Below are positions 9,001 through 12,000 of a stretch of 64,000 nucleotides of DNA, one piece after another. The DNA is taken from assembly GCF_057098645.1 (NCBI RefSeq), contig NZ_CM169472.1. One strand, given 5' to 3'. Numbering within the stretch: position 1 is the stretch's first letter; the number at the start of each line of letters is the position of its first letter. Position numbers: made by a program.

Positions 9001-12000
9001 ACAGCGGAAGAGCGTGAAATCAAAAAGGCCTACAAACGCCTGGCCATGAAATACCACCCGGACCGTAACCAGGGTGACAAAGAGGCCGAGGCGAAATTTA
9101 AAGAGATCAAGGAAGCTTATGAAGTTCTGACCGACTCGCAAAAACGTGCGGCATACGATCAGTATGGTCATGCTGCGTTTGAGCAAGGTGGCATGGGCGG
9201 CGGCGGTTTTGGCGGCGGCGCAGACTTCAGCGATATTTTTGGTGACGTTTTCGGCGATATTTTTGGCGGCGGACGTGGTCGTCAACGTGCGGCGCGCGGT
9301 GCTGATTTACGCTATAACATGGAGCTCACCCTCGAAGAAGCTGTACGTGGCGTGACCAAAGAGATCCGCATTCCGACTCTGGAAGAGTGTGACGTTTGCC
9401 ACGGTAGCGGTGCAAAACCAGGTACACAGCCGCAGACCTGTCCGACCTGTCATGGTTCTGGTCAGGTGCAGATGCGCCAGGGTTTCTTTGCCGTGCAGCA
9501 GACCTGTCCACACTGTCAGGGCCGCGGTACGCTGATCAAAGATCCGTGCAACAAATGTCATGGTCATGGTCGTGTTGAGCGCAGCAAAACGCTGTCCGTT
9601 AAAATCCCGGCAGGGGTGGACACTGGAGACCGCATCCGTCTTGCGGGCGAAGGTGAAGCGGGCGAGCATGGCGCACCGGCAGGCGATCTGTACGTTCAGG
9701 TTCAGGTTAAACAGCACCCGATTTTCGAGCGTGAAGGCAACAACCTGTATTGCGAAGTCCCGATCAACTTCGCTATGGCGGCGCTGGGTGGTGAAATCGA
9801 AGTACCGACCCTTGATGGTCGCGTTAAACTGAAAGTGCCTGGCGAAACCCAGACCGGTAAGCTGTTCCGTATGCGCGGTAAAGGCGTCAAGTCTGTCCGC
9901 GGTGGCGCACAGGGTGATTTGCTGTGCCGCGTTGTCGTCGAAACACCGGTAGGCCTGAACGAGAAGCAGAAACAGCTGCTGCAAGAGCTGCAAGAAAGCT
10001 TCGGTGGCCCAACCGGCGAGCACAACAGCCCGCGCTCAAAGAGCTTCTTTGATGGTGTGAAGAAGTTTTTTGACGACCTGACCCGCTAACCTCCCCAAAA
10101 GCCTGCCCGTAGGCAGGCCTGGGTAAAAATAGGGTGCGTTGAAGATATGCGAGCACCTGTAAAGTGGCGGGGATCACTCCCCGCCGTTGCTCTTACTCGG
10201 ATTCGTAAGCCGTGAAAACAGCAACCTCCGTCTGGCCAGTTCGGATGTGAACCTCACAGAGGTCTTTTCTCGTTACCAGCGCCGCCACTACGGCGGTGAT
10301 ACAGATGACGATCAGGGCGACAATCATCGCCTTATGCTGCTTCATTGCTCTCTTCTCCTTGACCTTACGGTCAGTAAGAGGCACTCTACATGTGTTCAGC
10401 ATATAGGGGGCCTCGGGTTGATAGTAAAATATCACTCGGGGCTTTTCTCTATCTGCCGTTCAGCTAATGCTTGAGACAGATAGCCTCAAGCACCCGCCGC
10501 TATTATATCGCTCTCTTTAACCCATTCTTTTATCGATTCTAATCCGGAAGACGCCTCGCATTTTTATGGCGTAATTTTTTAATGATTTAATTATTTAACT
10601 TTAATTTATCTCTTCATCGCAATTATTGACGACAAGCTGGATTATTTTTGAAATATTGGCCTAACAAACATCGCCGACTGACAACAAATTAATTATTACT
10701 TTTCCTAATTAATCCCTCAGAAATCCTCACCTTAAGCTATGATTATCAGGGCTTAGGGTCACTCGTGAACGCTTACAGCCGTCAAAAACGCATCTCACCG
10801 CTGATGGCGCAAATTCTTCAATGGCTCGTAAAAAACGAATTATTCCTACACTATAATCTGATTTTAACGATGATTCGTGCGGGGTAAAATAGTAAAAACG
10901 ATCTATTCACCTGAAAGAGAAATAAAAAGTGAAACATCTGCATCGATTCTTTAGCAGTGATGCCTCGGGAGGCATTATTCTTATCATTGCCGCTATCCTG
11001 GCGATGATGATGGCCAACAGCGGCGCAACCAGTGGATGGTATCACGACTTTCTGGAGACGCCGGTTCAGCTCCGGGTTGGTTCACTCGAAATCAACAAAA
11101 ACATGCTGTTATGGATAAATGACGCGCTGATGGCGGTATTTTTCCTGTTAGTCGGTCTGGAAGTTAAACGTGAACTGATGCAAGGATCGCTAGCCAGCTT
11201 ACGCCAGGCCGCATTTCCAGTTATCGCCGCTATTGGTGGGATGATTGTGCCGGCATTACTCTATCTGGCCTTTAACTATGCCGATCCGATTACCCGCGAA
11301 GGGTGGGCGATCCCGGCGGCTACTGACATTGCCTTTGCACTTGGTGTGCTGGCGCTATTGGGAAGTCGTGTTCCGTTAGCGCTGAAGATCTTTTTGATGG
11401 CTCTGGCTATTATCGACGATCTTGGGGCCATCATTATCATCGCATTGTTCTACACTAATGACTTATCGATGGCCTCTCTTGGCGTCGCGGCTGTAGCAAT
11501 TGCGGTACTCGCGGTATTGAATCTGTGTGGTGTACGCCGCACGGGCGTCTATATTCTGGTTGGCGTAGTGTTGTGGACTGCAGTGTTGAAATCGGGGGTT
11601 CACGCAACCCTGGCGGGGGTAATTGTCGGCTTCTTTATTCCTTTGAAAGAGAAGCATGGGCGTTCTCCAGCGAAGCGACTGGAGCATGTGTTGCACCCGT
11701 GGGTGGCGTATCTGATTTTACCACTGTTTGCATTTGCTAATGCTGGCGTTTCACTGCAAGGCGTCACGCTGGATGGCTTGACCTCCATTCTGCCATTGGG
11801 GATCATCGCTGGCTTGCTGATTGGCAAACCGCTGGGGATTAGTCTGTTCTGCTGGTTGGCGCTGCGTTTGAAACTGGCGCATCTGCCTGAGGGAACGACT
11901 TATCAGCAAATTATGGCTGTGGGGATCCTGTGCGGTATCGGTTTTACTATGTCTATCTTTATTGCCAGCCTGGCCTTTGGTAGCGTAGATCCAGAACTGA

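Follow-up and report, generated by a model that had tools for sequence, protein, structure and literature searches.

The hok/sok locus of plasmid R1 and its relatives combine a Hok/Gef toxin, an upstream mok frame, an antisense RNA lying over the mok start and an mRNA with tac-fbi pairing, a GC hairpin right past the toxin stop codon and a UACGAA motif. All of these features are found in, or predicted for, the locus described here, which lies in a 64-kb stretch of DNA analysed as a whole (hereafter the window). Unlike the plasmid loci, hokC in the window is chromosomal, has its mokC frame in phase with the toxin gene, and is ~75% identical to a P1-like plasmid copy, with lower identity to the others. 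Post-segregational killing is established for plasmid hok loci, whereas 10.1101/2025.08.07.668861 reports it as negative for chromosomal hokC.

Two chromosomal loci are closer still. In gef/sof (hokC/sokC) of K-12 MG1655 (b4412/b0018/b4413), HokC, MokC and the sokC promoter are identical to those of the window, but a 1339-bp IS186A parts the mRNA body from the segment covering the mokC start, the fbi element and the terminator; the window has no such insertion. PMC2654758 and PMC12214031 cite Pedersen & Gerdes 1999 for the inactivation of K-12 hok loci, whether through IS elements, point mutations or rearrangement. Two papers list hokC as inactive, with reference to K-12 (PMC5630033, PMC12214031). 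An intact, IS-free hokC was described in the natural isolate ECOR24 (Pedersen & Gerdes 1999, Mol Microbiol 32:1090, as cited in PMC3562002). As far as the published descriptions go, this locus sits at the same dnaJ-nhaA position, is free of IS186 and carries hokC/mokC/sokC with tac and fbi (PMC3562002, 10.1101/2025.08.07.668861); the window carries, ahead of its -10 box, a deletion of 2 bp that is private to it. The IS-free hokC is therefore no new form: it has been known since 1999 and is the ordinary state of the locus.

Locus structure and comparison with K-12

Positions 10096-10530 of the window very likely hold a chromosomal type I toxin-antitoxin locus, hokC/mokC/sokC, that is structurally complete, has the common IS186-free configuration and is arranged tail-to-tail with dnaJ. 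The dnaJ open reading frame (8929/8958-10089, plus strand) ends with a stop codon at 10087-10089. An open frame of the minus strand (10193-10435) contains both mokC and hokC, which share the stop codon at 10193-10195. The two stops are separated by 103 nt, in line with the distance of about 100 bp given in a preliminary description of this DNA, and the intact 50-aa HokC and 69-aa MokC frames noted there were both recovered in the list of open reading frames and are both identical to K-12. The hokC coding sequence (10193-10345, minus strand, ATG at 10345) encodes MKQHKAMIVALIVICITAVVAALVTRKDLCEVHIRTGQTEVAVFTAYESE and shows no nucleotide difference from K-12. The mokC coding sequence (10193-10402, minus strand, ATG at 10402) is in frame with hokC, of which it forms an N-terminal extension, and has the same extent as K-12 b0018. 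This upstream mok frame overlaps hokC, and its translational coupling to hokC is presumed by homology.

HokC belongs to the Hok/Gef family, with a score of 85.5 bits against Pfam PF01848 HOK_GEF (cutoff 22, E 2e-24). A match to Rfam RF01794 was found at 10343-10495 on the minus strand (122 bits, E 2e-27); this family, named 'sok', models the hok mRNA leader together with the antisense region. Judged by these two scores, the assignment to hokC/mokC/sokC is far beyond chance. The interval first proposed for the locus, 10090-10460, covers its core but is slightly short, the predicted 5' end of the mRNA being at ~10495, the -10 box at 10502-10507 and the outer limit of the locus at ~10530.

In the K-12 record the order is dnaJ, IS186A (15387-16731, insL1), mokC/hokC, sokC and nhaA, which bears out the earlier statement that IS186 lies directly downstream of hokC in that strain. 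The BLAST alignment of the window to K-12 breaks at window positions 10170-10181, inside a GC-rich hairpin just past the hokC stop (10166-10185; GGCGGGG-ATCACT-CCCCGCC, GGCGGGGATCACTCCCCGCC). This hairpin is the empty site of K-12 IS186A, where the element sits in the hairpin loop. Once the 1339-bp IS and one copy of its 10-bp target duplication GGATCACTCC were taken out of K-12, the two sequences were collinear. The 3' region, hairpin included, is uninterrupted as previously noted, and the 64-kb window gave no match to IS186 sequence at any position. The presence of an IS at another place in the locus had been considered as an argument against integrity; none was found between dnaJ and nhaA in the window, and the nearest is an IS3 copy ~7 kb off. 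The region is also collinear with E. coli O145 RM9872.

The proposed alignment to K-12 further showed five substitutions in the 400-nt transcription unit, at 10111, 10408, 10423, 10471 and 10481. All five spare hokC, mokC and the sokC promoter, and they leave every predicted pair in place. When the folds were inspected, the substitutions at 10481 and 10423 were seen to replace a G-U or A-C position by a Watson-Crick pair, those at 10111 and 10471 lie in loops, and the one at 10408 lies in the spacer preceding the mokC AUG. In K-12, the insertion separates the hokC stop from three 3' elements, namely the segment pairing with the mokC start, the fbi element and the terminator, so that the K-12 transcript loses all three, as also stated in PMC3562002. 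All three are present in the window.

The uninterrupted junction is widespread. A 170-nt query across the insertion point was matched without a break in 3814 of 5425 complete E. coli genomes (~70%), and the remaining genomes break at query position 80, which corresponds to window position 10170. The closest relative of the window was O145 RM9872, with 99.8-100% identity. Since 3814 of the 5425 genomes are uninterrupted, the IS-free state is the norm: IS-free hokC is the majority state and the IS186-interrupted K-12 version a minority form.

RNA elements, promoters and the proposed circuit

The full-length hokC mRNA is predicted to span ~400 nt (10096-10495, minus strand), with its 5' end placed by homology to the Rfam hok leader and its 3' end at a hairpin followed by a U-run. 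The modelled RNA, from 10495 to 10096, folded with a minimum free energy of -170.3 kcal/mol (z -7.26), and none of 100 shuffled sequences folded as well. At its 5' end lies the putative tac element GGGUGCUUGAGG (10484-10495, minus strand), which has two alternative partners: the predicted fbi (fold-back inhibition) element CUUCAACGCACCC (10132-10144, minus strand), complementary to the mRNA 5' end, or AAGCCCC at 10438-10444. In the minimum free energy fold, the 5' end pairs with CUUCAA-C-GCACCC at 10144-10132, which is the tac/fbi arrangement of hok mRNAs; RNAduplex gave this duplex -18.3 kcal/mol, with 12 bp and one bulge. A neighbouring 3' UTR segment, ACUUUACAGGUGCUCGCAUAU (10145-10165, minus strand), is predicted in the minimum free energy structures to pair with the region of the mokC start codon and SokC target. 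When the last 50 nt at the 3' end were removed, the 5' end refolded onto AAGCCCC (10444-10438), matching the Rfam consensus structure. The folding check suggested for fbi and tac thus returned both the full-length tac-fbi pairing and the alternative tac stem after 3' shortening. Collectively, all hok/sok-type cis elements are present and pair as expected in silico.

The 3' end of the transcript is marked by a terminator-like hairpin with a predicted 9-bp stem, AGGCCUGCC-UACG-GGCAGGCU, followed by UUUUG (10096-10121, minus strand), which abuts the dnaJ stop codon and carries one substitution relative to K-12 in its loop (10111). The sole hairpin of this kind between dnaJ and hokC (10096-10125) shows a U-run when read on the hokC strand and has an A-run towards dnaJ; although it stands 8 nt past the dnaJ stop, it looks better suited to terminate hokC than dnaJ.

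The SokC antisense RNA, ~59 nt in length, was placed at 10394-10452 on the plus strand by transfer of K-12 ncRNA b4413 (16952-17010) with no indels. The sokC region equals K-12 sokC except for two substitutions. SokC is complementary to the mokC translation-initiation region and is predicted to end in a hairpin and U-run; its fold, with the terminator-type hairpin, reached -27.7 kcal/mol (z -6.1). The presumed sokC promoter (10359-10388, plus strand), with a -35 TTGACC at 10359-10364 and a weak -10 at ~10382-10388, was positioned from the K-12-annotated sokC start and is identical to K-12. The presumed hokC promoter (10502-10530, minus strand), placed from alignments, has a perfect -10 TATAAT (10507-10502) and no recognisable -35. 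Both promoters are weak matches to the consensus. No hokC or sokC signal came out of a consensus promoter and terminator scan, which required 4/6 or better for each hexamer and a run of 5 T or more, and this says nothing about their absence; the hokC terminator was passed over because its U-run has only 4.

Relative to RM9872, K-12 and strain 720632, the window lacks 2 bp (TG, plus strand) between 10527 and 10528. The gap lies upstream of both the presumed hokC transcription start, by ~33 nt, and TATAAT, by 20 nt. The common allele at this site reads CCCATTC[TG]TTTTATCG on the plus strand. None of 5426 complete E. coli genomes matched the 70-nt segment of the window ungapped, the best match being 97.2%, and the deletion, unless it reflects a sequencing error, is a variant private to this strain. 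Regulatory point mutations had been named earlier as possible grounds against an active locus. For the sokC promoter, which is identical to K-12, nothing of the kind was found, but the 2 bp missing from the presumed hokC promoter, at about -33, are a regulatory change of the sort that was meant.

Relatives of hok in the plasmid collection comprised a P1-like 'hokD' with ~75% identity (L004, L005), an IncK pnd-like locus (L007), an R1-like locus from Leclercia (L008) and pHCM1 (L006). All match RF01794 and each has a complementarity between its 5' and 3' ends, as illustrated by GGGCGCUUGAGG with CCUCAAUGCGCCU in the IncK locus and by CCUCAAUGCACCC in the P1-like locus. RNAalifold applied to six full-length RNAs recovered the tac-fbi helix and the post-stop hairpin. 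The tac-fbi pair 4-413 is U-A in four and C-G in two of the six sequences, a compensatory change which, in a sample of only six, gives descriptive support to the helix. The motif TACGAA (UACGAA in RNA) is invariant in 6/6 aligned hok homologs. In the window, the UACG read from the sequence lies at 10204-10207 (minus strand), at the codon for HokC Tyr47 (position 46 in HokB numbering), which is a published TadA A-to-I site (Tyr to Cys); A-to-I editing of K-12 hokC has been reported (PMC5630033, PMC12214031).

By homology to hok/sok of plasmid R1, we propose that a weak promoter with its -10 TATAAT at 10507-10502 would yield the mRNA of ~400 nt. Its 5' end (tac, 10495-10484) would be locked to the 3' fbi element (10144-10132), and the second 3' segment (10165-10145) would cover the mokC start, so that the full-length RNA would be neither translated nor bound by SokC. 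Slow trimming from the 3' end would then strip the terminator and fbi, allowing the 5' end to refold onto 10444-10438, which would free the ribosome site of mokC along with the SokC target. SokC (10394-10452, plus strand), expected to be abundant and unstable, would pair with the exposed site and block translation of mokC and of the coupled hokC; a drop in SokC would allow HokC, a 50-aa membrane toxin, to be made. TadA editing of UACG at codon 47 may convert Tyr to Cys in this product. In K-12 the circuit would be broken because IS186 is inserted into the post-stop hairpin (10166-10185), removing the tac-fbi lock and the 3'-trimming steps. As K-12 is without the 3' control elements, IS-free strains are the suitable background in which to test whether TadA editing of HokC codon 47 matters.

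IS186 insertion at the post-stop hairpin and activity of the IS-free form

IS186 targets the motif GGGG(N6/N7)CCCC flanking a duplicated core (PMC5009759). The core of the post-stop hairpin, GGGGATCACTCCCC (10169-10182), is an exact GGGG(N6)CCCC target. The 64 kb contain only one further motif of this type, GGGGATGGATGCCCC at 60942-60956, which has the N7 form and is unoccupied. Among complete genomes, the hokC IS186 junction was found in the K-12 orientation in ~821 and in the opposite orientation in ~943, the latter confirmed by the inverted transposase gene of strain 720632. Together these counts slightly exceed the ~1611 interrupted genomes, and the excess probably comes from cross-matching plasmid hok-IS186 junctions such as H134/L011. 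The same arrangement recurs outside hokC. In K-12 hokE, IS186B follows GCGGGGAGTAATCC directly at the equivalent hairpin, and in P1-like plasmid hok copies IS186 follows GGCGGGGAGAGATCC likewise. The sites at window 10166-10185, L009 1695-1711, L005 945-962, L010 and L011 always occupy the same hairpin position. With the two orientations at hokC, and with hokE and the P1-like plasmid copies, at least four independent insertions have entered the same structural element.

We think it rather probable that the conserved GC hairpin after hok stops is a built-in landing pad for IS186, that hok loci have been severed repeatedly and independently from fbi and terminator at the same nucleotide, and that the window copy has so far escaped this target-driven, possibly selected, inactivation. 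Recurrent IS186 insertions at one hairpin across hok paralogs would provide an example of toxin-locus inactivation driven by target specificity.

A different route to inactivation was observed in the FCI17-type hokC allele, which carries an amber codon at HokC codon 3 (CAG to TAG). In the 63-nt segment containing this codon, no more than 479 genomes depart from the window sequence. FCI17 (L003, 1704-2124) represents a divergent hokC allele group with ~93% identity, in which RefSeq annotates only a 44-aa Hok/Gef protein; past the hokC promoter, a block with ompK and a sulfatase gene takes the place that nhaA has in the window.

The IS-free state could in principle be secondary and result from precise excision of IS186 from a K-12-like ancestor. 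IS186 is mobile and the site holds a single clean copy of GGATCACTCC, as such an event would leave it, yet no direct support for excision was found. IS elements seldom excise precisely. The IS-free junction is the majority state, the closest relatives of the window (O145 RM9872 and O157:H7) are IS-free as well, and the existence of both insertion orientations points to repeated gain rather than loss, which together make excision very improbable. The 2-bp deletion offers another way in which the window copy might depart from an active locus, by lowering or abolishing hokC transcription through a third route that is neither IS186 nor a nonsense codon. Its position at about -33 and its absence from all 5426 complete genomes, where the best match of 97.2% equals a 2-nt gap, speak for such an effect. 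The deletion leaves the -10 TATAAT and the start region intact, however, the common allele is also without a convincing -35, so the deleted bases may not be contacted, and the gap could be a sequencing or assembly error; we regard a promoter defect of this kind as unlikely.

A stronger alternative to an active toxin locus is that hokC looks intact but is physiologically silent, producing regulated RNAs and no natural killing, and persisting as a conserved remnant or for some purpose other than killing, a view that has been put forward for chromosomal hok loci in general. In agreement with this, 10.1101/2025.08.07.668861 reports that the IS-free ECOR24 hokC neither caused post-segregational killing nor became active under rifampicin. 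A loss of addictive properties has been put forward (PMC2654758), and hokC has been destroyed repeatedly across E. coli, by IS186 in both orientations and by the amber codon 3 of the FCI17-type allele, which suggests weak or no selection for its retention. Conversely, the HokC peptide is toxic on expression according to 10.1101/2025.08.07.668861 and PMC8509063, all RNA elements are kept with variants that preserve structure, and the 3' region is uninterrupted in ~70% of genomes. A silent locus may well be the correct reading, although we hold it only tentatively.

The suggestion that this may be a functional type I toxin-antitoxin locus stood in part. The structure is complete and the cis elements pair in silico, but 'functional' is only partly supported because later papers report no post-segregational killing by IS-free hokC, and the promoter carries a private deletion. 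The step from 'intact' to 'functional' is doubtful, and on the published evidence the physiological activity of the window hokC would likewise be doubtful. The structurally complete, IS-free locus mainly marks K-12 as an atypical reference at this position, the source strain keeping a complete regulatory RNA architecture. IS-free strains like this one are the right background in which to ask about the role of chromosomal hok loci in persistence, phage exclusion and stress.

Other features of the window

The IS3 copy nearest to the locus measures 1258 bp (17049-18306, minus strand) and has InsE-/InsF-like open reading frames, TGATC...GATCA ends and a flanking TCCC repeat. It is absent from RM9872 and interrupts a fimbrial chaperone/usher operon between nhaR and rpsT. 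In this nhaR-rpsT region (~13100-20800), K-12 has only IS1A, and RM9872 has the fimbrial operon, with its usher annotated as a pseudogene, together with the type III effector gene espX1. Apart from the IS3 copy, the window and RM9872 are collinear across this region.

A ccdA/ccdB-like type II toxin-antitoxin pair was found at 50801-51351 between folA and apaH, as open reading frames of 77 and 104 aa. The pair is annotated CcdA/CcdB in RM9872 and corresponds to chromosomal ccdO157 (PMC2654758). Three further Rfam matches in the window reached their gathering scores: ES036 at 385-427 (38.8 bits, barely above its threshold), tpke11 in the dnaK-dnaJ intergenic region (8881-8958, 69.6 bits) and ES003 at the carA/carB junction (29960-30012, 87.4 bits).
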